A DNA stretch of 64,000 nt, from assembly GCF_036009065.1 (NCBI RefSeq), contig NZ_DASYMN010000102.1, positions 3,202 to 67,201 of the forward strand. Direction: 5' to 3'. This document shows, one piece after another, positions 34,115 to 48,058 of this stretch. The notes under the pieces were generated by a model, which saw nothing but the letters and a program-made list of their open reading frames with translations, was not told the DNA's origin and did not search any database. The stretch comes from Bradyrhizobium sp. GTDB lineage: Bacteria > Pseudomonadota > Alphaproteobacteria > Rhizobiales > Xanthobacteraceae. The position numbers and the translations under genes were made by a program. The stretch's first letter is position 1. Each line of letters starts with the position of its first letter.

Positions 34115-34878
34115 GGGATGGGTCCGCCCATCAATTCGATCGGCGTGTGGCCCGCGGCGGCCTTAGCGGCGCGGGTGCCAAGATAGGCGGCGATCACGGC
34201 CGGATTGCCGGTGACCTCGCGCGGGCTGCCGCGCGCGATCTCGCGGCCCTGGTGAAACACCACCACGCGCGTCGCCAGCGACATGATGACTTCCATGATG
34301 TGCTCGACAATGACCAGCGTAATGCCGGAGTGATGGATATCGCGGACGAGATCGATCGCGAGTTGCACCTCGCGCTGCGTCAGGCCCGCCATCGCCTCAT
34401 CGAGCAGCAGGATTTTCGGCTCGGTGGCGAGCGCGCGCGCGATTTCGAGCCGCTTGCGGCCGGGCGTGCCGAGCGACCGCGCCGGCGCGTTGGCCAATGC
34501 GTTGAGGCCCACGCGCTCCAGCACCGCGCGGGCCTTGATCTCGGCCTCGGAACGATGCGGCGTACGCAAAAATGCGCCGATCATGACATTCTCGAGCACC
34601 GACATGCCTTCAAAGGTCTGCGGCACCTGAAAGGTGCGCGCGAGTCCGAGATGCGCGCGCGCTTCGGGCGTCAGGTTGGTGATGTCGTGACCCTCCAGCA
34701 AAACCGTGCCGGAGGTCGACAACAGATCGCCGGTCAGACAATTGAACAGCGTGGATTTGCCGGCGCCGTTGGGCCCGATCAGGCCGAGGATGTCGCCCTG
34801 CTCCAGCGTCACCGAGGCTCTATCGACGGCCTTGAAGCTGCCGAAGGCCTTTGTGACGTCGCGCGCCTCAAGGAGCAT
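34111..34878 (-). CDS. livG: Branched-chain amino acid ABC transporter ATP-binding protein
   Basis: GPNGAGKST, RTFQ, LLDEAMAG, VIAAYLG. Confidence 0.92.
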   Translation of the reverse strand: MLLEARDVTKAFGSFKAVDRASVTLEQGDILGLIGPNGAGKSTLFNCLTGDLLSTSGTVLLEGHDITNLTPEARAHLGLARTFQVPQTFEGMSVLENVMIGAFLRTPHRSEAEIKARAVLERVGLNALANAPARSLGTPGRKRLEIARALATEPKILLLDEAMAGLTQREVQLAIDLVRDIHHSGITLVIVEHIMEVIMSLATRVVVFHQGREIARGSPREVTGNPAVIAAYLGTRAAKAAAGHTPIELMGGPIP

Positions 34879-35869
34879 GGGCCGCTCCTTTCTGCGCAAC
34901 GGGCTCGGCCGCCTTGCTGCGCCTGGCCCACAGCCGGTTGATCAAGGTCAGAATGCCGCCGGGCTGGAAACGCGCGATCAAGACGATGATGGCGCCGTAG
35001 ACGACGAACGTCAGTCCCGCGCCCTTGCCGCCGAGCAGATTGTTGGAAATCTCCTCCAGCGGCACCAGGATGGCCGCGCCGATCAGCGGTCCGAACAGCA
35101 GGCCGGCGCCGCCGAGTGCCGCCATGATCAGCATTTTTACCGAGATCAGGATGCCGAGCCCGGACTCCGGATCGACAAAGCCGAACATCATTGCATAGAG
35201 CGCACCGGCGACGCTGGTCAGCCCGGCGCTCAGCATGAAAGCGTAGAGTTTTGTGCGGCTCGCCGGCGCGCCGAGCGAGCGCGCGGCGCGTTCGGAGTCC
35301 TTGATGGCGCGCAGATAAAAGCCCATCCGGCTATTCGCCATCCACCAGGTGATTCCAAGCGTGATCGCGAGCACGATGAGGAACAGATAGTAATAAGGCA
35401 ATGCCGACGTGAAGGAGAGATCTAGTACGGTTCGCGGCACAGTGGGACCGCTGAGGCCCACGGCCGCGCCGAGAAACTCGGTGTTGGTGACGATCAGCCG
35501 CACCAGTTCGGCAACCGCAATGGTCGCCATGCTGAAATAATGCCCGGACAGCCGCAGCGTCGGCACGCCGATCACCGCCGCAATCAGCACGGCGGCGGCG
35601 ACCCCGACGGGAATTCCGACCAGCGGCGGCAGCGCGAAGTGGGAATACGCCGCCATCGAAGCATAGGCGCCGCATCCGAAGAACACCACGTGCCCAACCG
35701 ACACCTGGCCGGCATAGCCGCCGACGATATTCCACGCCGAGGCGGCGATGGCATAGAGCAGAATCAGCGCGCCGAGCCGCTGCTGAAACGGTGTCGAGAA
35801 AAACAGCGGATACGCAATGATCAGCGCCAGTGCCACCGAAGGCCACAGGAAACGCCGCATCGTGCTCAT
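34868..35869 (-). CDS. livM: Branched-chain amino acid ABC transporter permease
   Basis: WNIVGGYAGQVSVGH, LRLSGHYF, AIKDSERAA. Confidence 0.9.
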   Translation of the reverse strand: MSTMRRFLWPSVALALIIAYPLFFSTPFQQRLGALILLYAIAASAWNIVGGYAGQVSVGHVVFFGCGAYASMAAYSHFALPPLVGIPVGVAAAVLIAAVIGVPTLRLSGHYFSMATIAVAELVRLIVTNTEFLGAAVGLSGPTVPRTVLDLSFTSALPYYYLFLIVLAITLGITWWMANSRMGFYLRAIKDSERAARSLGAPASRTKLYAFMLSAGLTSVAGALYAMMFGFVDPESGLGILISVKMLIMAALGGAGLLFGPLIGAAILVPLEEISNNLLGGKGAGLTFVVYGAIIVLIARFQPGGILTLINRLWARRSKAAEPVAQKGAAHAP

Positions 35870-36732
35870 TAGTTCTTGCCCATCAAGCCTTGCGGCCGGA
35901 ACCAGAGGAAACACAGGAACAGCGAATAGACCACGATGTCCTTGTAGACCGCGCCGATCCAGTAGGCCGACACCGACTCGATGACGCCGATCAGCAGTCC
36001 CGCCACCAGCGCGCCGGGCACGCTACCGAAGCCGCCCAGCGACACCGTGACAAAGGCGACGATGCCCAGCGTCTCGCCGACCGTCGGCGCGATATAGAAG
36101 AAGGTTGCGATCAGCGCACCGGCGATGCCGGTGGCCGCCGCGGCAATCGCCCAGGCGATGGCCTGCATGGTGTCCGGGCGGATGCCCATCAGCTGCGCCG
36201 CCGTGGAATCCTCGGCGACCGCAAGCATCTTCGAGCCAAGCGAGGTACGGGTAAGCAACACGTGCAGGCCAAGCGTGACCAGCAACGCGACCACGCCAGC
36301 CAGCAGGCGCGAGGCCTGGATACGGATGCCGAACACATCAAACGTGCCGCCGACGATATTTTCCGGCAGCGTCAAAAAATTGGCCCCAAAGCCCCAGAAC
36401 ACCGAATAGCGCAGCAGCAGCGCGAGGCCGAAGGTGCCGAGGATTTGCGCCAGCATCGGCCCCTTCATCACGCTGCGGATCAGGCCGAAATAGACGACGA
36501 TGCCTAGCGTCGCCAACACCAATGCTGCGACCGGCGCGCCGAGGAAGGGACCTACGCCGAACAGCGTCCACACCACGAACGCCACATACATGCCGAGCAT
36601 GACGAAATCGCCATGGGCGAAATTGACGATGTTCATCATGCCCCAGATCAGCGTGAGGCCGGAGGAAAACAGCGCATAAACCGCGCCGAGCAACAGGCCG
36701 CCGACGATCACCTGAACGAGGATGGAGGACAT
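35869..36732 (-). CDS. livH: Branched-chain amino acid ABC transporter permease
   Basis: GLTLIWGMMNIVNFAHGDF, GGFGSVPGA, FRPQGL. Confidence 0.92.
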   Translation of the reverse strand: MSSILVQVIVGGLLLGAVYALFSSGLTLIWGMMNIVNFAHGDFVMLGMYVAFVVWTLFGVGPFLGAPVAALVLATLGIVVYFGLIRSVMKGPMLAQILGTFGLALLLRYSVFWGFGANFLTLPENIVGGTFDVFGIRIQASRLLAGVVALLVTLGLHVLLTRTSLGSKMLAVAEDSTAAQLMGIRPDTMQAIAWAIAAAATGIAGALIATFFYIAPTVGETLGIVAFVTVSLGGFGSVPGALVAGLLIGVIESVSAYWIGAVYKDIVVYSLFLCFLWFRPQGLMGKN

Positions 36733-36829
36733 GCCGGCTTAAAAATTCTTGCGGGGTTAAATCTCATCGATGGCATCGTTGCCGGTCGAGAAGGCGGGAG
36801 CAATGCCCCGCCTTCGGTCGCTCGATTTA

Positions 36830-38083
36830 TTACCAGCCCTTGTAGGGCATCACCGGCGCCGTCTTGGCCTGGTTCTTCGGCCAGACCGCGACGTAGTTCT
36901 CGCCGTCCTGCAGCTGGATCACCAGTCCCGCCGCCAGGATGTTCTGGCCCTTGTCGTCGAATTTTACCCCTTTGTAGCCCATGATCAGCTGATCGGGTTT
37001 TAGGTCGGTAGCCTTCAATGCCGCCTGGATCTTGTCGGGCTCGGTCGACTTGGCGCGGTCGATCGCATCCATCAGGACAAAGAAACCCTGCATCTGACGC
37101 GCCGCGGTATCGTCCATGTCGTCGCCGCTCTTCTTCTTGTACATCTCGTTGATCAGGAACGACGGCGATCCCGGAGGTCCGATCGCGAAGGAGGAACGGT
37201 TGAACACGCCCTGCGCCAGCTTGCCGACCGCCTTGATGAAGGAGGGATCGGAGAAGCCTGCGTTGTCGGCCACCATCATCGGCGGCTTGTAGTCCAGCGC
37301 CTGCATGGTCTTGGCGTAGAGGATCGCATCGGACTGGTAGCAGACCATGATCACAACATCAGGCTTCTTGTCCTTGAGCTGCAGCACCTGGCTCTGCACG
37401 TCGGTGGTGTTGGCGGAGTACGCAATGTCCTGCGCGATGCTTAAGCCGTTCTCCTTGAACACGCTGGTGATGACGCTCGCAACCGAGGTGCCGTATTCGG
37501 TGTTCTCATGAACGATGGCGATGTTGTCGGTCTTGGCGCCGGCGGCCTTCATGTCCTTGAGGAAGTCGAGATAGATTTTTGCGAAATCGGATGCGACCGG
37601 CGTGGTGCGGAAGAACCATTTGAAACCACGCTCGGTCAGGCTTGCCGCCACCGACTCGCCATTCAGATAAGGAATGCCGTATTTTTCGGCGATCGCACTG
37701 GTCGTCAGCGTGATCCCGGACTGATAGGCGCCGCTGAGCGCAACCACCTTCTCTTCGGTGATCAGCCGCAACGCCTGGTTCTGTCCGGTGGCGGGGCTGC
37801 CCTGGTTGTCGGCGAATACCACCTCGACTTTTGCCCCGCCGAGACCGGCGAGACCGGGACCCTTCGTCACCGGCAGGTTGCCGAGACCGGGATGTCCGTT
37901 GTTGATGATGTCGACGGCGGTTTCGATCGCGGCCTTGGCGTGAACACCGGCGCTGGCGGCATTGCCGCTCAGCGGATAGATCGCGCCGATCTTGACGGTT
38001 TTTTGCTGCGCCAGCGCTGATCCCGTCAGGCAGAAGGAAATCGAGGCGGCGCAAAGCAGCCCGACGACGTGTTTGAATTTCAT
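36830..38083 (-). CDS. Branched-chain amino acid ABC transporter substrate-binding protein
   Basis: Signal peptide, KIGAIYPLSG, GAYQS, LTERGFKWFFRT. Confidence 0.9.
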   Translation of the reverse strand: MKFKHVVGLLCAASISFCLTGSALAQQKTVKIGAIYPLSGNAASAGVHAKAAIETAVDIINNGHPGLGNLPVTKGPGLAGLGGAKVEVVFADNQGSPATGQNQALRLITEEKVVALSGAYQSGITLTTSAIAEKYGIPYLNGESVAASLTERGFKWFFRTTPVASDFAKIYLDFLKDMKAAGAKTDNIAIVHENTEYGTSVASVITSVFKENGLSIAQDIAYSANTTDVQSQVLQLKDKKPDVVIMVCYQSDAILYAKTMQALDYKPPMMVADNAGFSDPSFIKAVGKLAQGVFNRSSFAIGPPGSPSFLINEMYKKKSGDDMDDTAARQMQGFFVLMDAIDRAKSTEPDKIQAALKATDLKPDQLIMGYKGVKFDDKGQNILAAGLVIQLQDGENYVAVWPKNQAKTAPVMPYKGW

Positions 38084-38198
38084 GCTGATAATCTCCGAAA
38101 GCGTTCCCACCCAATGCCGGGCTCTGAGGCCGAGATGCGCCGGGCGCTGGCGCCCGTCGCTCTGTTTTGTTTGGCATGACAAGCATGGCATGCCCGCT

Positions 38199-38921
38199 TC
38201 ACAGGGGCAAGCTGGCCTTGACGCCGATGTAGACGGTGTTGCTCGCATCGCGGTCCTGCAGCGGATTGTCGAAGGTCACGACATGCGCATCGGACGTTGC
38301 AAAGACATTGGCCAGCACCGCCTTGAATGCCGCATCCGGCGGGTCGTTCGACCACAGCGCGAACACGCCGCCGGGATGCAGATGTCCGGCAAGTTTTCGC
38401 AAGCCCTCCGGCCGGTACAGCGCCGCGTGGTTCGGATGCAGCAGGTTTTGCGGCGAGTGGTCGATGTCCACCAGCACCGCATCGAAGCGGCGACCGGGTG
38501 ACTGCGGATCAAGGGCGGATGCCGACATCGCGAAGAAGTCGCCGGCGACGAAGCGGCAGCGCGAATCGGCCATCAGCTGCCTGCCGAGCGGCAGCAGTCC
38601 CCGCTCGTGCCACTCGATCACCTCGGCCAGTGCATCGACCACGATCAGCGACCGCACCCGTCGATCTTCCAGCACGGCCTGCGCAGTGTAACCAAGCCCG
38701 AGCCCGCCAACGACCACATCGAGGTCCGCCCTCTCCAGCGCCGCCAATCCGAGCCGCGCCAGCGCAATTTCCGCAACCGTGAACAGGCTCGACATCAAAA
38801 ATTCGTCGCCGAGTTTTATTTCGTAGACGTCGATTCCGGTCGATAGCTGTCTTCGCCGCCGCAGGCTGAGCGCGCCCATCGGCGTCGGGCGAAAATCCAT
38901 CTCCTCGAAGTACACGCTCAT
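38199..38921 (-). CDS. Spermidine synthase-like SAM-dependent methyltransferase (short form)
   Basis: FLMSS, VVGGLGLGYT, DAVLVDIDHSP. Confidence 0.8.
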   Translation of the reverse strand: MSVYFEEMDFRPTPMGALSLRRRRQLSTGIDVYEIKLGDEFLMSSLFTVAEIALARLGLAALERADLDVVVGGLGLGYTAQAVLEDRRVRSLIVVDALAEVIEWHERGLLPLGRQLMADSRCRFVAGDFFAMSASALDPQSPGRRFDAVLVDIDHSPQNLLHPNHAALYRPEGLRKLAGHLHPGGVFALWSNDPPDAAFKAVLANVFATSDAHVVTFDNPLQDRDASNTVYIGVKASLPL

Positions 38922-39148: not shown

Positions 39149-39222
39149 TGGGGAATGGTGTAACGGTAGCACAACAGACTCTGACTCTGTTTGTCTAGGT
39201 TCGAATCCTAGTTCCCCAGCCA
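39149..39222 (+). tRNA. tRNA-Gln (anticodon CTG)
   Basis: TGGGGAA/TTCCCCA acceptor stem, ACAGA-CTCTGAC-TCTGT anticodon arm, GTTCGAATC T-loop, encoded CCA. Confidence 0.97.
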
Positions 39223-39258: not shown

Positions 39259-40689
39259 CTACGTGCGTGGAGAATCCGCCACGGCCACGACGATTCTTCG
39301 ATCCCAAAGCCACTGCAGCATGTTCCGGCCGAGATCGGGCGACATGCGGTCAGACCAGGCCTGCACGATGGAACCGGCGGTCTCGTCAGAGCGTATCTGC
39401 CGCAACAACGGGACCAGTTCGACTTCGCTCAGAAAGGCGACGGGACGATCCAGCGCCGCATGACAGAGCGCCGGCGTGGACGCGATCATGTCGCCCTGCA
39501 TGACCGGCATCGACTCGATCCGCGATAGCTTCGAAAGCTCGATCCTGCACGCCGGTTCTAGCCGTCTCGTTTCCAGCGGCGGCGGAGCGATATCGCGCAC
39601 GGCGGCAGCGGCGCGCTGCTGCCAGAACGGCCCCCCGGTTACGGCGGCGCGCTCCTGATAGAAGGCCGCCGCGCTGGCGGTGTGCTGTGAAACCTTTTCG
39701 GTTTGACGGTCCTTGTAGAATGTGATCGCGTCTGCCGCATGCGCCGGATGTTTTGCCAGCGTGTTGATGACCACGGCCGCCTGCAGTCCCGAGACCACGG
39801 CGCTTTGAATGCCCTGCGCAGACAACGGGTCAAGGGTCAGATTGGCGTCGCCGACCCGCACAAAATCCGGCCCGGCGGCGTGCTCGGCATGCCGGCTCGA
39901 TGCGTCGCACGCGGCGACCTCTCCCGCGATGCGGCCGGCCTCGTCCTCGCGAAACAATCTGAACCGGCGGAGGAGGTCGAAGTAAATGCCTTCGATGTTC
40001 GTCCGCGACCTGCCCGACAGGAGCTTCGGATCGATGAATACGGCGGCGACCGACTTGCCGCTGCCGAGCGGCGCGTACCAGAGCCACATATTGTCACCGG
40101 CCTCCACGCATCCCTCGACCTGCTTGCGGTCCGGCGCGTGCCAGTGCGCGAACAGGCTGAGCAATGGAGCGGAGCTTCGGATTCGCCGGCCGGGCAGCAA
40201 TGCCCGGCTTCCGGCGGCATCGACGAGGAACGTCGCCACGATCTCCTTTCGGCTTCCGTCATGCCGAACCGGGATTTGCCAGCCGCCGCCGTGCAGCCGC
40301 TGGGGGCTCATCGCATGCGCAGGCCGCAGCACCATGACGCCGCCGGCTTCGGCGTTGCGCAGCAGGATGTCATCGAACCGGCAGCGGTCCACATGGAAGC
40401 CGGGAAGCCCGGGCAACGACCGAACAGAAGGCCGCGCGTCCGCCCACCACACCACGATTCGTTCGGGACGCAGGAAGCCGGCACGCTCCAGGCGATCGCG
40501 GACCCCGATGACCTCAAGCAACGGCAGGATGCTGGACGGGAGTGATGCGCCGCTGCGCGCTTCAGGTACCGCATCGCGCTCAAGCAGACAGACCCGATAG
40601 CCGAACGAGGCGAGCCGGCAGGCGGCGGTTGAGCCGGCAGGGCCGCCGCCGATCACGCAAATGTCCGCCGTGATCCTTGCGATTTCCAT
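39259..40689 (-). CDS. FAD-dependent oxidoreductase, LodB/GoxB/QhpG-like, with C-terminal extra domain
   Basis: IGGGPAG, VDRCRFD, FLVDAAG, GDANLTLDPLSAQGI; in an operon with a LodA-like gene. Confidence 0.82.
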   Translation of the reverse strand: MEIARITADICVIGGGPAGSTAACRLASFGYRVCLLERDAVPEARSGASLPSSILPLLEVIGVRDRLERAGFLRPERIVVWWADARPSVRSLPGLPGFHVDRCRFDDILLRNAEAGGVMVLRPAHAMSPQRLHGGGWQIPVRHDGSRKEIVATFLVDAAGSRALLPGRRIRSSAPLLSLFAHWHAPDRKQVEGCVEAGDNMWLWYAPLGSGKSVAAVFIDPKLLSGRSRTNIEGIYFDLLRRFRLFREDEAGRIAGEVAACDASSRHAEHAAGPDFVRVGDANLTLDPLSAQGIQSAVVSGLQAAVVINTLAKHPAHAADAITFYKDRQTEKVSQHTASAAAFYQERAAVTGGPFWQQRAAAAVRDIAPPPLETRRLEPACRIELSKLSRIESMPVMQGDMIASTPALCHAALDRPVAFLSEVELVPLLRQIRSDETAGSIVQAWSDRMSPDLGRNMLQWLWDRRIVVAVADSPRT

Positions 40690-40696
40690 CTGGCAA

Positions 40697-42079
40697 TTAA
40701 GGGTGCGCCTGCGAATTCAGGACCTGGTGAAGCAGCGGAGGCTTCGCTTCCATCAGTCGCGCGTACACGCCGAGACAATAGTGCAGCCAGCCGCGAATGT
40801 AGTCGCAGGCGGGACGGCCACGATGAATGACCTCGTGATGGCAACCGCCACCGCACTGATGGCGCGCCCAACAGGTTCGGCAGGGCTCCTGCCTCTGCAC
40901 GTTCCGGTCCGATAGCCAGCGCTGCTGCTTTTCGCCGTCCACGCCATCGCTGACGTTGCCCATCGCGCCGAGATCGTCGTCGACGAAGCGATGACAGGCG
41001 AACAAGTCTCCCTTGGAGGAAACGCCGAGATAGCCCCCACCCGCGCCGCACGGATAGGCGTCGCGGTTTGGCTTGTGGATGCGGCGGAGCGTGTTGATGA
41101 TATTCAGGAATGGATAGATTTCGTTGTTCATCAGACGCTGCTCGAACGTCTCAGCGCATGCGATCATGCGCGCGAGCATGGCGTCGAACTCGCCCCTGCC
41201 CATCTGGTCGGAACCCGCCGGGGATTTCAGCACCGGCGAGAAGGACACGCCGTCGAAACCAAGGCGCGCGAGTTCGTCCAGCGTTTCCGGCAGGCCGAGG
41301 TTTCGCGGGGTGACGCTCACGCGCGCGATGACCTGCGAGCGGCGATGTGGGCGCAACAGCAGCAGTTTCGACCGTTCGATAATGCGGTCATAGCTGCCCC
41401 GGCCGGACTTGAACGGCCGCAGCGCATCATGGGCCGCGCCGACCCCATCGATGCTGACCGTCACGGTGAACCCGTGGCGGTCGAAGAACGCCGCATCGTC
41501 GGCCGTCAGCAGCGTCGCATTGGTGGTCAGCGCAAACGCGACGTTGATACCCAACGATGCCGCCCTGTCGGCGGCATAGCGCGTTGCTTCCTGCAAGACC
41601 GTCCGGTTGACCAACGGTTCACCGCCCAGATACGCAATCGTGATATTTTCGCCGGGCTCCGCGTCCGCCAGCAGCCGGTCGACGGACGCCTTCGCGACCT
41701 CAATCGGCATGCTGCTGTCGGCGCCGCCGAAATTGCCCTGCTGCGCGTAGCAATAGGTGCAGCCGAGATTGCACTTCTGCGCCACCGCGAGCGACAGCGC
41801 GCGGACCGGGACCGACACAGGCGCCTGCTCGGGAGCCCTCGTCTCGCCAAGTCCGGCGGCCGACATGATGAAGCCGACCCGCTCCGCGTCGCCATACTGC
41901 ATGGCTCGATCGAGCACTTCGGCCATCGCGTCATCGATCTCATGGATAAGTCCGTCGTCGATCGACAACAGCATGGTGCGCGCGTCCGCGCCGAACAGAT
42001 GTGCGTTCGGAACTCGGGGAGCGCTCGCGTAACGGGCGCGGCGGTCCGGTGCCGGCAAGTCAACGCCGATTGCTTCCAT
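40697..42079 (-). CDS. Radical SAM/SPASM domain protein (QhpD/thioether-maturase-like)
   Basis: CNLGCTYC, GGEPL, TTNATLL; SPASM CGAG..GDLFACHRF and CRTCWARHQCGGGC..C; N-terminal RRE-like region. Confidence 0.9.
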   Translation of the reverse strand: MEAIGVDLPAPDRRARYASAPRVPNAHLFGADARTMLLSIDDGLIHEIDDAMAEVLDRAMQYGDAERVGFIMSAAGLGETRAPEQAPVSVPVRALSLAVAQKCNLGCTYCYAQQGNFGGADSSMPIEVAKASVDRLLADAEPGENITIAYLGGEPLVNRTVLQEATRYAADRAASLGINVAFALTTNATLLTADDAAFFDRHGFTVTVSIDGVGAAHDALRPFKSGRGSYDRIIERSKLLLLRPHRRSQVIARVSVTPRNLGLPETLDELARLGFDGVSFSPVLKSPAGSDQMGRGEFDAMLARMIACAETFEQRLMNNEIYPFLNIINTLRRIHKPNRDAYPCGAGGGYLGVSSKGDLFACHRFVDDDLGAMGNVSDGVDGEKQQRWLSDRNVQRQEPCRTCWARHQCGGGCHHEVIHRGRPACDYIRGWLHYCLGVYARLMEAKPPLLHQVLNSQAHP

Positions 42080-42109: not shown

Positions 42110-43321
42110 CTAGGCTATCAAGTCCTCGATGTCGTCGCCGGGCCCGCGTTCGGTTTCTACCTTCTTGCCAGACACCACCCGCATCACGCCGATCTTGTCC
42201 ACATGGCGGTCCATCCCATTCGGATCGAATTCCAGCGTTGGTCCATTGTCTGACGTGTCCGCATACTGTTTTCGGAAGAACTGGACCAACGTAGACGTCT
42301 CCTCATCAAGGTATGCCTCTTGCGGAAGGTGCTGCGCCCAGTAACCGACACATGCAGCGAAGTCGCCCTGCCACGGCGAGCACAGCCCGCTCGTCAGTTG
42401 CCCCGGCACCGCGCCGGGCCCGGTGTCGGTCAGTGACGCCTTGTATCGAACACGCGCTTCCCGGGGATCGACTTTCGGATCCTGGCTGCTCAGATAGAAG
42501 ACGCTCTTGATATCGATTACTTCCGTTCCCGGACCCGCGGAACCGAATGATGTCTCCATGCCCGGTTGAAATCTTCGCGTTGTCGATTCAAGCGCTCCCT
42601 CGTCCAAGGCTCTCGCGGCCTGGTTGTGAAGATTGCCGGGCGGGAGATTGTCGGGAATTTGAAGTCTTTCCTGGAAAAATTCGATCAGGCTTTCAGGTTC
42701 ATTCGTATCGGGTGAGAAGTCCTGCGGAGCAACCACGATGCAGGCTGGCAGCACGTCCGGCGTCTGGCCGCCGCCGGTCAGTTTCACGGTGACCGATCCA
42801 TCGCTGGCGTTGTCGGTAATTTCCTCGGAATACATACCGGGAATTTCCTGGCCCTTGGTCTTGCGCACCGCTCGCGCTATCGGCGGAATGAACAGGCCGT
42901 CCGAGGTGATCTGTCCCATAGCGACATCTTTTCCTTCATCGAATCCCGGCAGAGAGCCGACCAGCATTCCACCACTCGCGTCATCGGAGGAGGCCTGTGC
43001 CGAGATTACGAAGTCGGTGCTGCTTAAGGGGATGTCTTTCCGATTGGCGATCTTGCGATTGGCGACCCTCGCCGACCACACCGCCTGAATTTTCAGGGCG
43101 CCCATCAATTTCGGGGTGAGTTCGCCCAGCCCGGCGTGATTTTCCCCATAGGCGTAAATCCTGAACTGCACGGCTTGCCGCTTGATCAGACCATTGGATT
43201 TGTAGGTGCCCGGATCTTTGCCAAAAACGTAATGATCATCATTGCGCGACAGCCGTGCAATTCCGATTGCGGGATGAATCTTGAAGACGACAACATTGCT
43301 CAGGTCATACGGAAATGCCAT
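42110..43321 (-). CDS. LodA/GoxA-like CTQ-dependent oxidase, unusually short (403 aa)
   Basis: KIHPAIGIAR, IKRQAVQFRIY, W..RVANRK, D..SDGSV, PG.E, PGQLT..LCSPWQGDF..C...W; GAGGAG SD. Confidence 0.8.
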   Translation of the reverse strand: MAFPYDLSNVVVFKIHPAIGIARLSRNDDHYVFGKDPGTYKSNGLIKRQAVQFRIYAYGENHAGLGELTPKLMGALKIQAVWSARVANRKIANRKDIPLSSTDFVISAQASSDDASGGMLVGSLPGFDEGKDVAMGQITSDGLFIPPIARAVRKTKGQEIPGMYSEEITDNASDGSVTVKLTGGGQTPDVLPACIVVAPQDFSPDTNEPESLIEFFQERLQIPDNLPPGNLHNQAARALDEGALESTTRRFQPGMETSFGSAGPGTEVIDIKSVFYLSSQDPKVDPREARVRYKASLTDTGPGAVPGQLTSGLCSPWQGDFAACVGYWAQHLPQEAYLDEETSTLVQFFRKQYADTSDNGPTLEFDPNGMDRHVDKIGVMRVVSGKKVETERGPGDDIEDLIA

Positions 43322-43378: not shown

Positions 43379-44389
43379 CTATGGAACATACTCGAACGGT
43401 AACCCCAGCTGTTTTCCGGTGTGGGAGTCCGGCGTCGACACCACGCTCTCAGCGAGTTCTCGAAGGGACGACATGGCGCCGACCGCGCCGGTAATCCCTC
43501 CCGGCGAACCGTCGAAAACATTCTGCAACCCGCGAAGCATGTTCGAGTACGCTTTGTTGAATCCATCCACTTTCGTCCGTTCTGCCGAGCCCACCGGATA
43601 GTCTGCCGCCTTCGGGTTATCGGGAATGTCCCAGACGCCTGTCGGATCGAAAATCAGCGGATTGCCTGTATATGAGTACCCGTTTTGCGCGGCCGGATTT
43701 ACGACCAACTCCGCGCCACGATAAATCCCCTCGAACAGGTAAAAGTGAGCGAACTTGCCGTCCACATCGAGCGGAGTTAAAGTTGTTCCCTCTCCATCCT
43801 CGACGACGCGTTTGAGAGCCTTTACGGCCGTTGCTGCATCGGTGATTGCGTAAAGCTGATCCGAAGGAAACGAGTCTTCGTCGACGACCTGACGGCCCGG
43901 GTCTCCGGTGAAGATGGCGTCGCCGAGCTGGTCGATCTTCTCGATAATCGACCGGTAGAATTCTCCGATCGTCGCGAACGAGGCGCTAAAGGGAATAATC
44001 GTTTCGGGTGCTTCGATCTTCATGAAGACATCGTGAACGAGTTCCACGGAAAACTTCTTGAGACCGACCTGCAAGCTGCCTCCTATGTTCATCGGCAGCG
44101 GCCCCGGGTAGACAGGCGCGGCCTTCGGATCGGCAATGAGAGGGCGGCCATCAACCGCATTGAGAACGTTCGCAACGATCGTCATGTGCAGCATCTCTTC
44201 CTTGGCTACCTTAAAGATTGTTCTTTTGATTTCTTTATTGGTGCCCGGCATGATGCTGTACACAGCTGTCAAATAAGGCGGGATCGTTGACAGTTCGAGT
44301 TCAATGGCTTTTTGCAGCGGTTCATGCAGATCGGCGCCGCTCTTGGCGTTGCGCGCAGCTGCTACATAGACGGGATCGATGCGAAGCAT
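43379..44389 (-). CDS. Ferritin-like domain protein (VioB/RebD C-terminal-like)
   Basis: LQKAIELELSTIPPYL, EEMLHM..VANVLNA, TIGEFY, EDGEG, AHFYLF; start could be 44404 or 44425. Confidence 0.82.
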   Translation of the reverse strand: MLRIDPVYVAAARNAKSGADLHEPLQKAIELELSTIPPYLTAVYSIMPGTNKEIKRTIFKVAKEEMLHMTIVANVLNAVDGRPLIADPKAAPVYPGPLPMNIGGSLQVGLKKFSVELVHDVFMKIEAPETIIPFSASFATIGEFYRSIIEKIDQLGDAIFTGDPGRQVVDEDSFPSDQLYAITDAATAVKALKRVVEDGEGTTLTPLDVDGKFAHFYLFEGIYRGAELVVNPAAQNGYSYTGNPLIFDPTGVWDIPDNPKAADYPVGSAERTKVDGFNKAYSNMLRGLQNVFDGSPGGITGAVGAMSSLRELAESVVSTPDSHTGKQLGLPFEYVP

Positions 44390-44882
44390 GATTGCCGTGC
44401 CCATGGCTGGAGGACCGCTCGGCACATATCCACGAGCTATCGCTCGCGATAGGCGGCCCCTCGCGTTTCGGAACGTGGTCTGAGGTCTGCAACTATATTT
44501 TTATGGTGACGATTATAACTTGGCTGTAATTTCTTGCTTTTGAGAATTACCGGAAGGTTCACATAAATCTGCTTTCTCGTCAACCGCAACGCGAACAATA
44601 GCGTTAGCTCTCGTGGTCGAGTCCCGGCCTGAGCGCCCATCCGTCAGTTGTGAATGTATCTAAACTTTCTCAGCACTTTGTGCGCTTGGATCCGAGATCG
44701 ACCGCTTCGTATCTCACTCGCGTTCGCGGGTGCGTACAAATGCCACATCTGAGCACGGGTGCGGCTCGATGCCGACGTCAGCAGCAAACGGGTGGCCACG
44801 CGAAGCGATGCAGTAGCGACGAACCCGCCACCAAGATTGCCGGCCTCCACGTGCGGCGGGCTGTTCATCGCACCGCGCTGCC

Positions 44883-45839
44883 TCACCCCCTCACCGGCGG
44901 CGTGCCGTGCGTATGAAACGACTCGATCGTCTTCAGCCCCCACGCCTGCCCCTTCTTGCGCTCTTCCTCGGTCCAGACGATCGGCTTCCAGTCCGGCGCC
45001 AGGATGAGACGGGCGCCGGCATTGGCGACTTCGACGCGGTTGCCGCCGGGTTCGTAGACGTAGAGGAAGAAGGTCTGCTGGATAGCGTGCTTGTGCGGGC
45101 CGGTCTCGATGTAGACGCCGTTTTCCAGAAAAATGTCGGCGGCGCGCAGGATGTCCTCGCGGCTGTCGAGGGCGTAGGTGACGTGATGGAAACGGCCCGG
45201 CGTTTTGAAGTGATCGCGTGAGTAGGCGAAGTCGTAGCTCTTGTTCGACATCGTCATCCACATTGCGGCTTCCGTGCCGTCGTCGAGCACGATCTGCTCG
45301 GTCAGGCGGCAGCCGAGATAATTCTGGAAGAAGATGCGGTTGGCCTTGATGTCCACGGCGAGGCAATTGAGGTGATCGAGGCGGCGGACGTTGACGCCGC
45401 GCGCAGGAAAACGCTGCGCCTGGTTTTTCAGCGCGGGTTTTAGGTCAGGCGGCGCCTCGTACCATTCGGTCTCATAATACAGCTCGATGATATGGCCGTC
45501 CGGGTCGCGGCAACGGAACGCCGGACCATGGCCGATGTCGCCGTCGGTCCAGCCGATCTCGAACTCCGAGCCTTTGAGCGCCGCGACGCGGCGTTGCAGC
45601 GCCTGCGGACTGCGCGCACGCAGCGCCATGTGCTCCATGCCTGATGTGTTGGACGCGGTCAGCTTGAGCGAATAGCGCTCGTAGTCGTCCCAGCCACGCA
45701 GATAGATCGAGTCTCCCTTGCGGCCGCTGATGGTCATGCCCATCACGTCGACGAAGAATTTGAGGCTCTCGTCCGGTTTCGGCGTCAGCAGCTCCATGTG
45801 GCCGAGATGGGCGAGATCGAAAATCGGCTCCGGCTTCAT
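44883..45839 (-). CDS. Catechol 2,3-dioxygenase (extradiol, VOC superfamily)
   Basis: AHLGHMEL, RLDHLN, FHHVTY, GPHKHAI, YVYEPGGNRVE metal/catalytic motifs. Confidence 0.9.
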   Translation of the reverse strand: MKPEPIFDLAHLGHMELLTPKPDESLKFFVDVMGMTISGRKGDSIYLRGWDDYERYSLKLTASNTSGMEHMALRARSPQALQRRVAALKGSEFEIGWTDGDIGHGPAFRCRDPDGHIIELYYETEWYEAPPDLKPALKNQAQRFPARGVNVRRLDHLNCLAVDIKANRIFFQNYLGCRLTEQIVLDDGTEAAMWMTMSNKSYDFAYSRDHFKTPGRFHHVTYALDSREDILRAADIFLENGVYIETGPHKHAIQQTFFLYVYEPGGNRVEVANAGARLILAPDWKPIVWTEEERKKGQAWGLKTIESFHTHGTPPVRG

Positions 45840-45855
45840 CCGTCCCCCCCTTAAG

Positions 45856-46746
45856 CTACCGCAGCGTCGGCGTCAGATCGCCGAACAATTCGTCTACCGC
45901 CAATTCGCGGGGAATGAGTCCCTGCTGCGCGGTATAGCGAATGATCATCTCCAGCGAGCGGCGCATTTCTTCAACGCTGAACCGCGGCGACGCAGCGGGC
46001 GCACGGGCCGCGCTTTGTTGCAGCAGCCGGAACACCTCCTGCACCACATCCGGATGGCTAGTCGAAAGCGCCTCGCTGACCACCACCATATGGTTGATCG
46101 GCATCACCTGATGCTTTGCAAACCATGATTTTTCTTCCCTCGCCACATCTGGAAACAGCGGCTTCAGATCCGGATGTTCCAATTTCTCGCCGAGCACCGC
46201 GTCGAGTTCGCCCTCCACCAGCATCTGGACGATCTGTTTACCCGGTGGCGCGCGCACCGTAGTGTCACGAAATTCGGCGACATGGGCGTCCTCGAACGTG
46301 ACCCAGTCGATCGAGTCCAGATCGACGCCATGATCATTGGCAAGGATTCCGCGCAGCCACGCGCCAGTCGTGGTCGTGAACGAGCGGATGCCGATGCGCT
46401 TGTTGTTGAGGTCGGCAGGCATCAGAGTTCCCGATTTCGCATTGTAGAGCGCGAACGCATGCTGAAACCGCGCCATCACCACGCTCGGCAGCAGCACCAT
46501 CGGCTTGCCAAAACTCTTCGCCATCAGATAGGTGACGATCGCCATCTCCGCGACATCGAAGGCCTGCTCGCGGACCATCGGCTTAAAACCCTTGTAGGTC
46601 GGTGAATAATCCGCGAAATCCAGCGTTACGGAATCCGACTTGATCGATCCGTTCTTCAGCGCGGCGGTGCCGGGATGATCGCCAAGCAATGTCCTTAGCC
46701 GCATCGGCACCTGCGGCGTGAAATTGCGCAAAGCGGTCTTTGACAT
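45856..46746 (-). CDS. 4,5-dihydroxyphthalate decarboxylase-like protein (periplasmic-binding-protein fold)
   Basis: FDVAEMAIVTYL, GIRSFTTTTGAWLRGIL, PINHMVVV. Confidence 0.75.
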   Translation of the reverse strand: MSKTALRNFTPQVPMRLRTLLGDHPGTAALKNGSIKSDSVTLDFADYSPTYKGFKPMVREQAFDVAEMAIVTYLMAKSFGKPMVLLPSVVMARFQHAFALYNAKSGTLMPADLNNKRIGIRSFTTTTGAWLRGILANDHGVDLDSIDWVTFEDAHVAEFRDTTVRAPPGKQIVQMLVEGELDAVLGEKLEHPDLKPLFPDVAREEKSWFAKHQVMPINHMVVVSEALSTSHPDVVQEVFRLLQQSAARAPAASPRFSVEEMRRSLEMIIRYTAQQGLIPRELAVDELFGDLTPTLR

Positions 46747-46768
46747 GGCATTCCCTTCTTGCAGGACG

Positions 46769-48058
46769 CTACCTCATATTCGCCGGCGCGTGTATATGCC
46801 ACAAGTCGGTGCGCCAATGCAGCGCGATAGTCAGCATCAGCAGCAGCCCGGTGGCCCCATAGAGCGTCGCGGTGGCGACGAATCCGATCTCGCCGATCAG
46901 GTTGCCGGCCGCCAGCAGGCCGAGCGGCAGGCTGTAGATCGCCAGCATGCGCACGCCCATCACCCGGCCGCGGAAATGCTCGCTCGCGGTGCGCATCAGG
47001 ATCACCGCGATCGAGATCATGGCGAGACTCTGCGAGAAGCCGGCCATCATCAGGCACGCGACCGCGGCCGGCATGTTCTGCACATGTGCGAATACCAGCA
47101 GCGTCACATACCACAGGATCGTCGCACCGATCATGAGACGGGCGATGCGGATGCCGCCGACCAGGCTCAAGGCAATCGACCCGATCAGCGAGCCGACTGC
47201 GAAACTAGCGGACAGATATCCAAGCCCGGTCTGGTTGGTGCCGTAGATGTCGCGCGCGATGTACGGCAGCAACCCGTTGGACAACGGATAGGCGGTCAGG
47301 TTGGCGAGGAACGCGATCCAGATCGCAGCCTGCATCCGCGGCGTGGTCCAGACATAGGCGATGCCCTCTTTCAAATCGCGCATCGGCGAACGTCGTATTG
47401 CTTCGCTCGCCACCTCATCGATGGGATGCGGTTTTGAGGGTGCAATCACGCGGAGGGTGAGCAACGTGCTTGCGATATAAAGACTGACGATCGCCACGTA
47501 GGCCGGTCCCATGCCGAGCGCCGCGAACAATCCGGCGCCGCTCAGCGCGCCGGCGATCCGCGCGGTATCCATCGTGGTGCGGGAGATGCTGATCGCGCCG
47601 ATCAATTGATGGTGCGGCATGATGGTGGCGACCAGCGCGCCGCGGACGCCAAGATCGGACGGACGAACGAGACCCATCACCGCCACGATGATAAAGACAT
47701 ATAGCGGGGTCAAATAGCCCGCGAACGCGAGCGTCATCAGCGTAATGGCGAGCACGGCATAGGTCGCGCGCATGATCGCGAGCAGATCGCGGTGGCCGAT
47801 GCGGTCGCCAACCACGCCGAACATCGGCGCGATCAGCGTGCCTATGAAATTGAGCGCCGCGAACAACGTGAGCAGCAGCACCGAGCCGGTCTCGACCAGC
47901 ACGTACCAACCGAGAATCAGCGTCTCCATCTCGAATGCCCATGACGTGAGCAGATCCGCCGGCCACTGAAAACGGTAGTTGCGTATCCGGAAGGGCGCCA
48001 GCGCCGAAGGGCGCGCGAGCTCGCTCAAAACCCAAAGCCGCGATTCATCGCGTTCCAC
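46769..48058 (-). CDS. MFS transporter
   Basis: About 12 hydrophobic helices; GVVGDRIGHR motif A; RGRVMG. Confidence 0.88.
   Translation of the reverse strand: MERDESRLWVLSELARPSALAPFRIRNYRFQWPADLLTSWAFEMETLILGWYVLVETGSVLLLTLFAALNFIGTLIAPMFGVVGDRIGHRDLLAIMRATYAVLAITLMTLAFAGYLTPLYVFIIVAVMGLVRPSDLGVRGALVATIMPHHQLIGAISISRTTMDTARIAGALSGAGLFAALGMGPAYVAIVSLYIASTLLTLRVIAPSKPHPIDEVASEAIRRSPMRDLKEGIAYVWTTPRMQAAIWIAFLANLTAYPLSNGLLPYIARDIYGTNQTGLGYLSASFAVGSLIGSIALSLVGGIRIARLMIGATILWYVTLLVFAHVQNMPAAVACLMMAGFSQSLAMISIAVILMRTASEHFRGRVMGVRMLAIYSLPLGLLAAGNLIGEIGFVATATLYGATGLLLMLTIALHWRTDLWHIHAPANMR

Follow-up and report, generated by a model that had tools for sequence, protein, structure and literature searches.

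The 64,000-nucleotide stretch of a Bradyrhizobium genome analysed here (the window) carries a minus-strand operon of four genes, for a ferritin-like protein, a LodA-like quinoprotein (P0002), a radical S-adenosylmethionine (SAM)/SPASM enzyme (P0001) and a flavoprotein (P0003), in that order. Comparative genomics points to the third of these as a QhpD-like thioether synthase that would act on the LodA-like protein encoded just upstream, and we judge this explanation, taken as a whole, to be probably right. Its firmest part is the identity of the substrate: the LodA-like protein seems highly likely to fill this role, because its gene is the adjacent upstream one, the tree of the radical SAM enzymes follows its architecture, and one of its cysteines, C314, occurs only in forms linked to the radical SAM enzyme. 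The thioether chemistry and the choice of C314 and D320 as the bonded pair, which are drawn by analogy, are only marginally favoured. Coordinates of all features are collected in Table 1.

The gaps in the window's cassette are 57 bp (ferritin-like/LodA-like), 30 bp (LodA-like/radical SAM) and 7 bp (radical SAM/flavoprotein), and the arrangement is kept far beyond this genome. A pattern scan of species-representative genomes gave at least 482 relatives of the radical SAM enzyme, and the best 80 loci were examined; they come from about ten phyla (Acidobacteriota, Actinomycetota, Myxococcota, Cyanobacteriota, Verrucomicrobiota, Planctomycetota, Chloroflexota, Pseudomonadota and others). Nearly all of these 80 show the same gene order, the exceptions being contigs that start at the radical SAM gene, one clade with the flavoprotein gene at the front, and two loci (L013 and L078) taken up below. 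A LodA-like gene bearing the cofactor motif lies upstream of the radical SAM gene in all but two of the loci that have upstream DNA, and directly adjacent to it in most. Public records label the cassette proteins merely 'radical SAM protein' or 'uncharacterized protein'.

Four architectures of the LodA-like partner occur: short (~400 residues, the window's type), long (~770 residues), split, and a split variant whose cofactor piece is fused to the ferritin-like domain. The split form is the commonest (~50 of 74 loci, including L014, L017-L024, L033-L038, L044, L047, L055, L062-L065, L070, L079, L081 and L084) and consists of an N-terminal subunit of ~460 residues and a cofactor subunit of ~250-290 residues, many of the genes being joined by 4-bp overlaps. 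In every architecture the piece with the Cys/Trp motif is upstream of the radical SAM gene, mostly adjacent. The ferritin-like gene is present in most loci and in several is fused to the LodA-like C-terminus (L039 4759-6666, L075 4869-6929, L061 4980-6962, L068 4775-6817; further fusions in L041, L051, L082 and L085, with Ruegeria and other, mostly uncultured, bacteria as hosts); such Rosetta-stone fusions imply that the two proteins work together physically.

The window's genome (94.5% complete, 464 contigs) has four LodA-like cassettes in total. Two include a radical SAM enzyme and a QhpG-type flavoprotein, namely the window's and a paralogous one on contig C351 (L006 3483-10501) with a long LodA-like protein of 781 residues (P0007); the other two are classical, with ferritin-like, LodA and LodB genes and no radical SAM gene (C250 = L126, C414 = L127). 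In the tree of radical SAM enzymes, the ten found beside short LodA-like proteins form one clade (support 100) from hosts of at least four phyla, and the enzyme of the paralogous cassette groups with those linked to long forms. The radical SAM enzyme therefore appears to diversify with the architecture of its LodA-like partner, not with host taxonomy.

P0002 passes the cut-offs of two Pfam models (LodA_N PF17990, 50.9 bits; LodA_C PF18417, 31.5 bits) and of neither NCBIfam model (LodA, 26.5 bits against a cut-off of 600; GoxA, 27.6 against 750). Its cysteines are at exactly 194, 314 and 324, of which C314 and C324 are invariant and C194 is not conserved. These are the three cysteines counted in an earlier, sequence-only reading of this stretch, which also rightly found none in the ferritin-like protein. 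LodA (3WEU) aligns to P0002 over GDLTKRMACPWQADFFNC516T; since C324 falls on LodA C516 and D320 on D512, C324 probably supplies the cysteine of cysteine tryptophylquinone (CTQ), the cofactor, and D320 would be the conserved Asp of the active site. LodA W581 lies in YWW581PPQSP, while P0002 reads GYW328AQHLP and the long forms YYWAASRPD; because W328 is in the same W-[PA]-x-x-x-P motif as W581, it is the likely CTQ tryptophan. The spacing from Cys to Trp is 4-5 residues in LodA-like proteins linked to the radical SAM enzyme, against 65 in LodA and 6 in QhpC.

We regard one comparison within this loop as decisive. All 72 LodA-like proteins linked to the radical SAM enzyme have Cys at the second position ahead of [P]W[QH], and none of 14 classical ones does (11 have Ala, 3 Gly), the classical set being those without an adjacent radical SAM gene of this family and including two from the window's genome and four with a ferritin-like partner. 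In LodA the corresponding sequence is MACPWQ, where the Cys comes one residue further on; in GoxA it is MGIPWQ. The substrate feature that tracks the radical SAM enzyme would be this Cys, six residues ahead of the catalytic Asp.

The same loop recalls QhpC, the small subunit on which QhpD acts. QhpC from true qhp operons reads LC27QPMEAD33LYGC37xDPC41WW43PAQxxD49; long and split LodA-like forms read LCSPWQNDYREC-x-CYYWAASRPD, in which equivalents of C27, D33, C37, C41, W43 and D49 follow in the same order, and short forms keep only those of C27, D33, C37 and W43. The third Cys and the RPD Asp (compare QhpC C41-D49) are both present in all 62 long or split forms and both absent from 10 of 11 short ones, a split that coincides with one clade and so amounts to roughly one event. 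When QhpC was compared by hhalign with each of two LodA-like alignments, the loop was the sole match (P = 0.019 and 0.035), which is suggestive, not significant. A phmmer search of PDB with the long paralogue P0007 gave no match, and a profile of the C-terminal subunits reaches LodA only at E ~0.09, over the motif alone. We also noted that the QhpC motif CWWPAQVPD (L087-L097) resembles the CTQ-Trp motif WWPAQRP(L/D) of classical LodA-like proteins (L116, L118, L126); QhpC could be a cofactor loop of LodA that became detached and miniaturised.

The radical SAM enzyme itself belongs to the radical SAM/SPASM superfamily, with both cysteine sets present. None of the ten cluster cysteines, three in the CxxxCxxC motif and seven in the SPASM region, varies in two alignments, of 15 and of 54 family members (49-90% identity to P0001). 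The Pfam Radical_SAM model is passed (PF04055, 58.4 bits, cut-off 29.5); the Pfam SPASM model stays below threshold (17.1 bits, cut-off 21.5), and the seven-Cys set aligns with the SPASM region of CteB, with which the fold also agrees in Foldseek. The AlphaFold2 model built from the 54-sequence alignment has a mean predicted local distance difference test (pLDDT) score of 88 and a predicted TM-score of 0.89, and in it residues 26-75, at pLDDT ~95, fold into three strands and then two helices. Its best Foldseek match is CteB (5WGG), over 453 columns that include the N-terminal recognition element (RRE) domain, which in such enzymes recognises peptides that are made by ribosomes and modified post-translationally (RiPPs), with a TM-score of 0.74-0.77; the anaerobic sulfatase-maturating enzyme (anSME) is second, over 385-397 columns only. 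Searched alone, the N-terminal 89-96 residues match no Pfam family, even at E = 10, so the predicted RRE-like character of this domain is a label taken from the fold alone. The sequence-only reading had pointed out the CxxxCxxC motif, a full SPASM cysteine set and an RRE-like N-terminal region of ~80 residues, and the alignments bear out both cysteine sets, while the model predicts an RRE-like fold at the N-terminus. The recorded gene model (P0012, 423 residues) begins at an internal Met (~41970) and drops the first RRE-like strand; since conservation extends over residues 17-35, with H27 invariant, the ATG at 42079, which gives 460 residues, is the better start.

P0001 passes none of the NCBIfam radical SAM cut-offs. 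The models rank as QhpD (TIGR03906, 308 bits against a cut-off of 453), PapB (261.8 against 340), nif11 (229.7 against 518.7), SCIFF (224 against 425) and anSME (TIGR03942, 106 against 349). On the QhpD hidden Markov model, true QhpD proteins reach 660-760 bits and the two copies of the window's genome ~305, with none between in 301 genomes of the same class. In the reverse test, a profile built from the P0001 family gave its own members 728-738 bits and QhpD 302-310. A maximum-likelihood tree splits the 80 LodA-linked enzymes from six QhpD proteins (SH-aLRT 100); having no outgroup, it speaks for distinctness from QhpD, not for a sister relationship. In a sequence search of solved structures, CteB was closest (172.7 bits; anSME, 37.6). 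Taken together, P0001 appears to be a member of a separate, well-conserved family nearest QhpD, and its nearest families, QhpD, PapB and CteB, are all Cys-thioether formers. Three assignments to known families were tried and rejected: to QhpD (sub-cut-off score, a clade of its own, and no QhpC in the window's genome), to ranthipeptide (PapB) or SCIFF maturases (sub-cut-off scores and no small Cys-rich precursor gene), and to anSME (106 bits, a shorter structural alignment, and no sulfatase-like gene among the cassette and neighbour genes examined).

The flavoprotein also resembles the QhpD system. P0003 matches QhpG from end to end (NF049967, 286.7 bits, above the cut-off of 240) and scores 129 on LodB against a cut-off of 400. 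Five flavoproteins adjacent to the radical SAM gene (the window's, the paralogue's and three others) are ~470 residues long and full-length QhpG matches (286-321 bits against 240), whereas three from classical cassettes are ~360 residues long and LodB/GoxB-like; because their QhpG match ends at about position 340, they lack the winged-helix domain. The flavoproteins tested beside the radical SAM enzyme are thus of the QhpG type with a winged-helix domain, not LodB. QhpG acts on crosslinked QhpC within a QhpC-QhpD-QhpG ternary complex and stimulates QhpD (PMC7876137).

A possible recognition element lies at the start of the cofactor subunit. In split forms its start lies no more than a few residues from a conserved segment such as MKKLDPKNLSAQLHYRAAGNPP, and the subunit opens with an MKxLxPxNxxA[QE]L segment resembling the QhpC leader, which in QhpC from qhp operons begins MKHLKPLNKKAEL. 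The pattern [LIVMT]-x-P-x-N-x-x-A-[QERK] was found at the split-subunit start in 51 of 65 sequences scanned. hhalign pairs the N-terminus of the split subunits with that of QhpC from the first residue of each, at 44% identity across 18 columns (P = 0.08); this likeness is weak alone, yet colinear with the loop match. The counterpart in P0002, PPGNLHNQAAR at about residues 226-236, is more degenerate. We hypothesise that this leader-like segment is what the RRE-like domain binds; the 28-residue leader of QhpC is required for QhpD binding (PMC7876137).

The maturation that we propose takes its steps from QhpD and QhpG by analogy, using comparative genomics only. The RRE-like domain would dock on the leader-like segment of the LodA-like protein (P-x-N-L-S/T-A-Q-L in long and split forms, the segment at ~226-236 in P0002), and the radical SAM core would take a hydrogen off the Asp320 beta-carbon. 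From its place on an auxiliary cluster, Cys314 could then form a Cys-S-C(beta)-Asp thioether with Asp320, stapling the cofactor loop; long forms would gain an additional thioether, between their third Cys and their RPD Asp. Dihydroxylation of Trp328 would fall to the QhpG-type flavoprotein, which probably forms a ternary complex with the two other proteins, and addition of Cys324 to the oxidised indole would give CTQ.

Several points weigh against this account. The crosslink in the LodA-like protein is itself proposed from comparative genomics alone. Two of the examined loci depart from the expected layout: in L013 (5910-9148) the radical SAM and flavoprotein genes follow a truncated ferritin-like open reading frame (ORF) of 154 residues, with no LodA-like gene present, and L078 (5145-8314) is rearranged, with flavoprotein and radical SAM genes followed by unrelated oxidase-like genes and the ferritin-like gene ~5.6 kb off. 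The AlphaFold2 model of the short LodA-like protein, from an 11-sequence alignment, has a pLDDT of 52, below 50 in the loop, which makes it unusable for judging the geometry of C314/D320 and C324/W328. The similarity to QhpC is short and statistically weak (P ~0.02-0.08, hhalign probability <3%). Since the LodA-like proteins linked to the radical SAM enzyme are probably one clade, the correlation of the Cys with the enzyme and the co-occurrence of CxC and RPD may each represent a single event. Every tryptophylquinone enzyme has a conserved catalytic Asp where Asp320 stands, and finding one here is therefore no mark of this family. The QhpC pairings Cys27-Asp33 and C7-E16 are those of the QHNDH (quinohaemoprotein amine dehydrogenase) crystal structures. 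For QhpC, PMC7876137 confirms only a thioether between Cys41 and Asp49, the CTQ pair Cys37/Trp43, and Asp33 as the equivalent of the conserved Asp.

The most serious competitor, though an unlikely one, keeps the LodA-like protein as substrate and changes the chemistry to a direct Cys324-Trp328 bond, a C-C or ether crosslink, or conversion of Cys314 to formylglycine as by anSME. SPASM enzymes do perform many kinds of reaction, the synteny fits equally well, anSME is the second-best structural match, and C-S-P-W-Q resembles the sulfatase motif C-x-P-x-R, C-x-P being common to both. Against this stand the thioether chemistry of all the nearest families, the mere 106 bits on the anSME model, and the Gln that replaces the sulfatase Arg. 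As for a direct Cys-Trp bond, LodA, GoxA and QHNDH form it without a radical SAM enzyme (PMC7876137), and since classical LodA-like proteins make CTQ without one, the enzyme studied here should serve the additional Cys of its clade.

It is considerably less probable that the enzyme acts on the ferritin-like protein, the flavoprotein or a small molecule, for example in building or loading the cofactor of the ferritin-like partner. The ferritin-like gene is as tightly kept as the LodA-like gene, to which it is sometimes fused, and some SPASM enzymes take small molecules. The window's ferritin-like protein, however, has no Cys, and the RRE-like domain favours a polypeptide substrate; moreover, ferritin-like/LodA/LodB cassettes without a radical SAM gene exist, two of them in the window's genome (L126, L127), so the ferritin-like partner needs no such enzyme.

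A conventional RiPP maturase with a small Cys-rich precursor encoded elsewhere, or missed, is very improbable. The RRE-like N-terminus and the closeness to ranthipeptide and SCIFF maturases would suit it, and a gene could be missing from an assembly as incomplete and fragmented as this one. We clustered all ORFs of 25-130 residues in the cassettes and in 1.5 kb on each side at the 80 loci, with <30% overlap with the four genes. No family of small ORFs occurred in more than five of the 80 loci; the largest one, with five, came from closely related genomes only, and most families looked like off-frame translations. No ORF fits the 7-57 bp gaps of the window's cassette. Two chance Cys-containing ORFs near the ferritin-like start (44322-44492 on the minus strand, 56 residues with four Cys, which overlaps that start in another frame; and 44392-44529 on the plus strand) had no convincing homologue in the 80 related loci (best E = 0.04). 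A search of the window's genome for QhpC (PF08992) gave no match, while as a positive control the same model found QhpC beside QhpD in four of four genomes with a true QhpD. Since no ORF family is conserved and the QhpC search was empty with its control positive, we exclude a precursor that is conserved and encoded in cis, and consider one of the QhpC type encoded in trans to be very unlikely. The position of the radical SAM gene, which in almost every locus with flanks has the LodA-like gene on one side and the flavoprotein gene on the other, and the sub-cut-off PapB and SCIFF scores, argue in the same direction.

These searches bear directly on the sequence-only reading, which had seen no short Cys-containing ORF in the gaps or upstream, named a conserved small precursor ORF as the finding that would speak against it, and proposed a genome-wide search for a trans-encoded precursor. 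Its observation holds, the few upstream ORFs being off-frame overlaps without convincing homologues, and neither the clustering of the 80 loci nor the genome search for QhpC produced a precursor. Its proposal that the substrate is a protein of ~44 kDa rather than a RiPP peptide is supported by the synteny, by C314 and by the lack of a precursor, with the correction that elsewhere the substrate would mostly be the cofactor subunit of ~250-290 residues. A protein substrate is indeed rare for this class of enzyme, as it had said, although anSME and QhpD provide precedents. The last alternative, an anSME acting on a sulfatase, which that reading had set against its own proposal, is almost certainly wrong: anSME is a SPASM enzyme with a protein substrate and is among the structural matches, but the TIGR03942 score is 106 bits where 349 are needed, anSME has no N-terminal RRE domain and aligns over the shorter 385-397 columns, and no sulfatase-like gene turned up among the cassette and neighbour genes examined.

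Table 1. Features of the cassette and of the two proteins at its centre, in window coordinates
Feature	Coordinates	Strand	Basis or remark
Ferritin-like protein (PF12902), first cassette gene, no Cys	43379..44425	-	Pfam, 217.5 bits
Short LodA-like quinoprotein P0002, 403 aa, 43.6 kDa, proposed substrate	42110..43321	-	Pfam LodA_N + LodA_C
Putative cofactor loop C314-SPWQG-D320-FAA-C324-VGY-W328	42338..42382	-	LodA alignment, C314 specificity, hhalign against QhpC
Radical SAM/SPASM enzyme P0001, candidate QhpD-like maturase	40697..42079	-	Intact ORF, 460 aa; NCBIfam, alignments, AlphaFold2, Foldseek
Predicted N-terminal RRE-like domain, residues 1-88 (3 strands + 2 helices at 26-75)	41816..42079	-	AlphaFold2 + Foldseek
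CxxxCxxC cluster motif C103/C107/C110	41750..41773	-	Alignment invariance
SPASM auxiliary-cluster cysteines C344, C362, C400, C403, C409, C413, C425	40805..41050	-	Alignment invariance
QhpG-type flavin monooxygenase P0003, 476 aa, C-terminal winged-helix region	39259..40689	-	NCBIfam NF049967
tRNA-Gln(CTG)	39149-39222	+	Closes the unit, 37 nt past the flavoprotein stop codon

The setting of the cassette points to a module gained horizontally beside a tRNA gene, because the cassette is absent from four genomes of the same genus and from the ~400 sampled genomes of the phylum. Profiling of the cassette across 401 genomes of the same phylum, with the window's genome as sole carrier, was in itself uninformative. 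Upstream (44883-48058, minus strand) are genes for an extradiol-dioxygenase-type Glyoxalase-fold protein, a 296-residue protein and an MFS transporter, and downstream (34868-38248, minus strand) is a branched-chain amino-acid ABC transporter set; none of these flanking genes was seen beside the cassette in the related loci viewed, although no dedicated search was made.

Among known systems, anSME/AtsB is a precedent for the enzyme studied here, if our account is right, being a SPASM radical SAM enzyme whose target is a Cys beside a C-x-P motif within a full-size enzyme; it differs in its formylglycine chemistry, in having no RRE and in its far lower sequence similarity (106 bits). CteB, the SCIFF maturase of structure 5WGG, and PapB have the same architecture of RRE, radical SAM core and SPASM region, whereas here there is no small Cys-rich precursor gene and the N-terminus has no sequence likeness to known RRE families. 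RRE-bearing radical SAM/SPASM enzymes are usually taken as markers of peptide natural products. If the same machinery builds an enzyme active site, as proposed, a genome-mining call of an orphan RiPP cluster at such loci would be wrong.

The module of QhpD, QhpC and QhpG that matures QHNDH is like the cassette in pairing a radical SAM/SPASM enzyme, for which QhpD is the best model match, with a full-length QhpG-type flavoprotein. The loop order Cys, Asp, Cys, Trp corresponds to C27, D33, C37 and W43 of QhpC, with equivalents of C41 and D49 added in long forms, and the split cofactor subunit starts with a leader-like P-x-N-x-x-A-[EQ]-L. Unlike that module, the cassette has a ferritin-like partner and no gene of the QhpA, QhpB, QhpE or QhpF type, and the window's genome has no QhpC; the proposed substrate is a LodA-fold protein of 250-800 residues instead of a QhpC subunit of ~80 residues with a cleaved leader, and it has no equivalent of the C7-E16 pair of QhpC. 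LodA/GoxA with LodB/GoxB are the other relatives, with LodA_N and LodA_C domains, the CTQ Cys, the catalytic Asp, the Trp motif and a flavoprotein gene downstream. From these the proteins linked to the radical SAM enzyme differ in being half-size (403 against ~700-800 residues) or split, in their Cys-Trp spacing (4-5 against 65), in the extra invariant Cys two residues before PWQ, in having a QhpG-type and not a LodB-type partner, and in the inserted radical SAM gene.

Current reviews describe two separate CTQ routes, QhpD/QhpG on a small subunit and LodB/GoxB on a large oxidase. A survey of the LodA family from 2015 recorded that fungi have ferritin-like neighbours and that in Bradyrhizobium a small gene intervenes, and mentions no radical SAM enzyme (PMC4417212); our literature search found no description of a cassette with a LodA-like protein and a radical SAM enzyme, and the only two papers found to name both LodA and QhpD treat the routes as distinct. 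The cassette would be a QhpD-type maturation moved onto a LodA-fold enzyme, and so a mixture of the two. More tentatively, and with the doubts outweighing the support, the family could be an evolutionary bridge between the two CTQ classes, with QhpC as a detached LodA-like loop and the fused short and long forms, the split forms (whose cofactor subunit, ~28 kDa, is encoded directly upstream of the radical SAM gene) and QhpC as its stages. If so, this would be the first thioether-forming SPASM enzyme to read, through an RRE, a 'leader' inside a full-size enzyme and to staple the catalytic Asp of that enzyme. The cassette defines a large family of uncharacterised quinoproteins, paired in most loci with a ferritin-like protein, and a hybrid of this kind in at least 482 species genomes offers a handle on how the two CTQ routes relate and on what thioether staples add.

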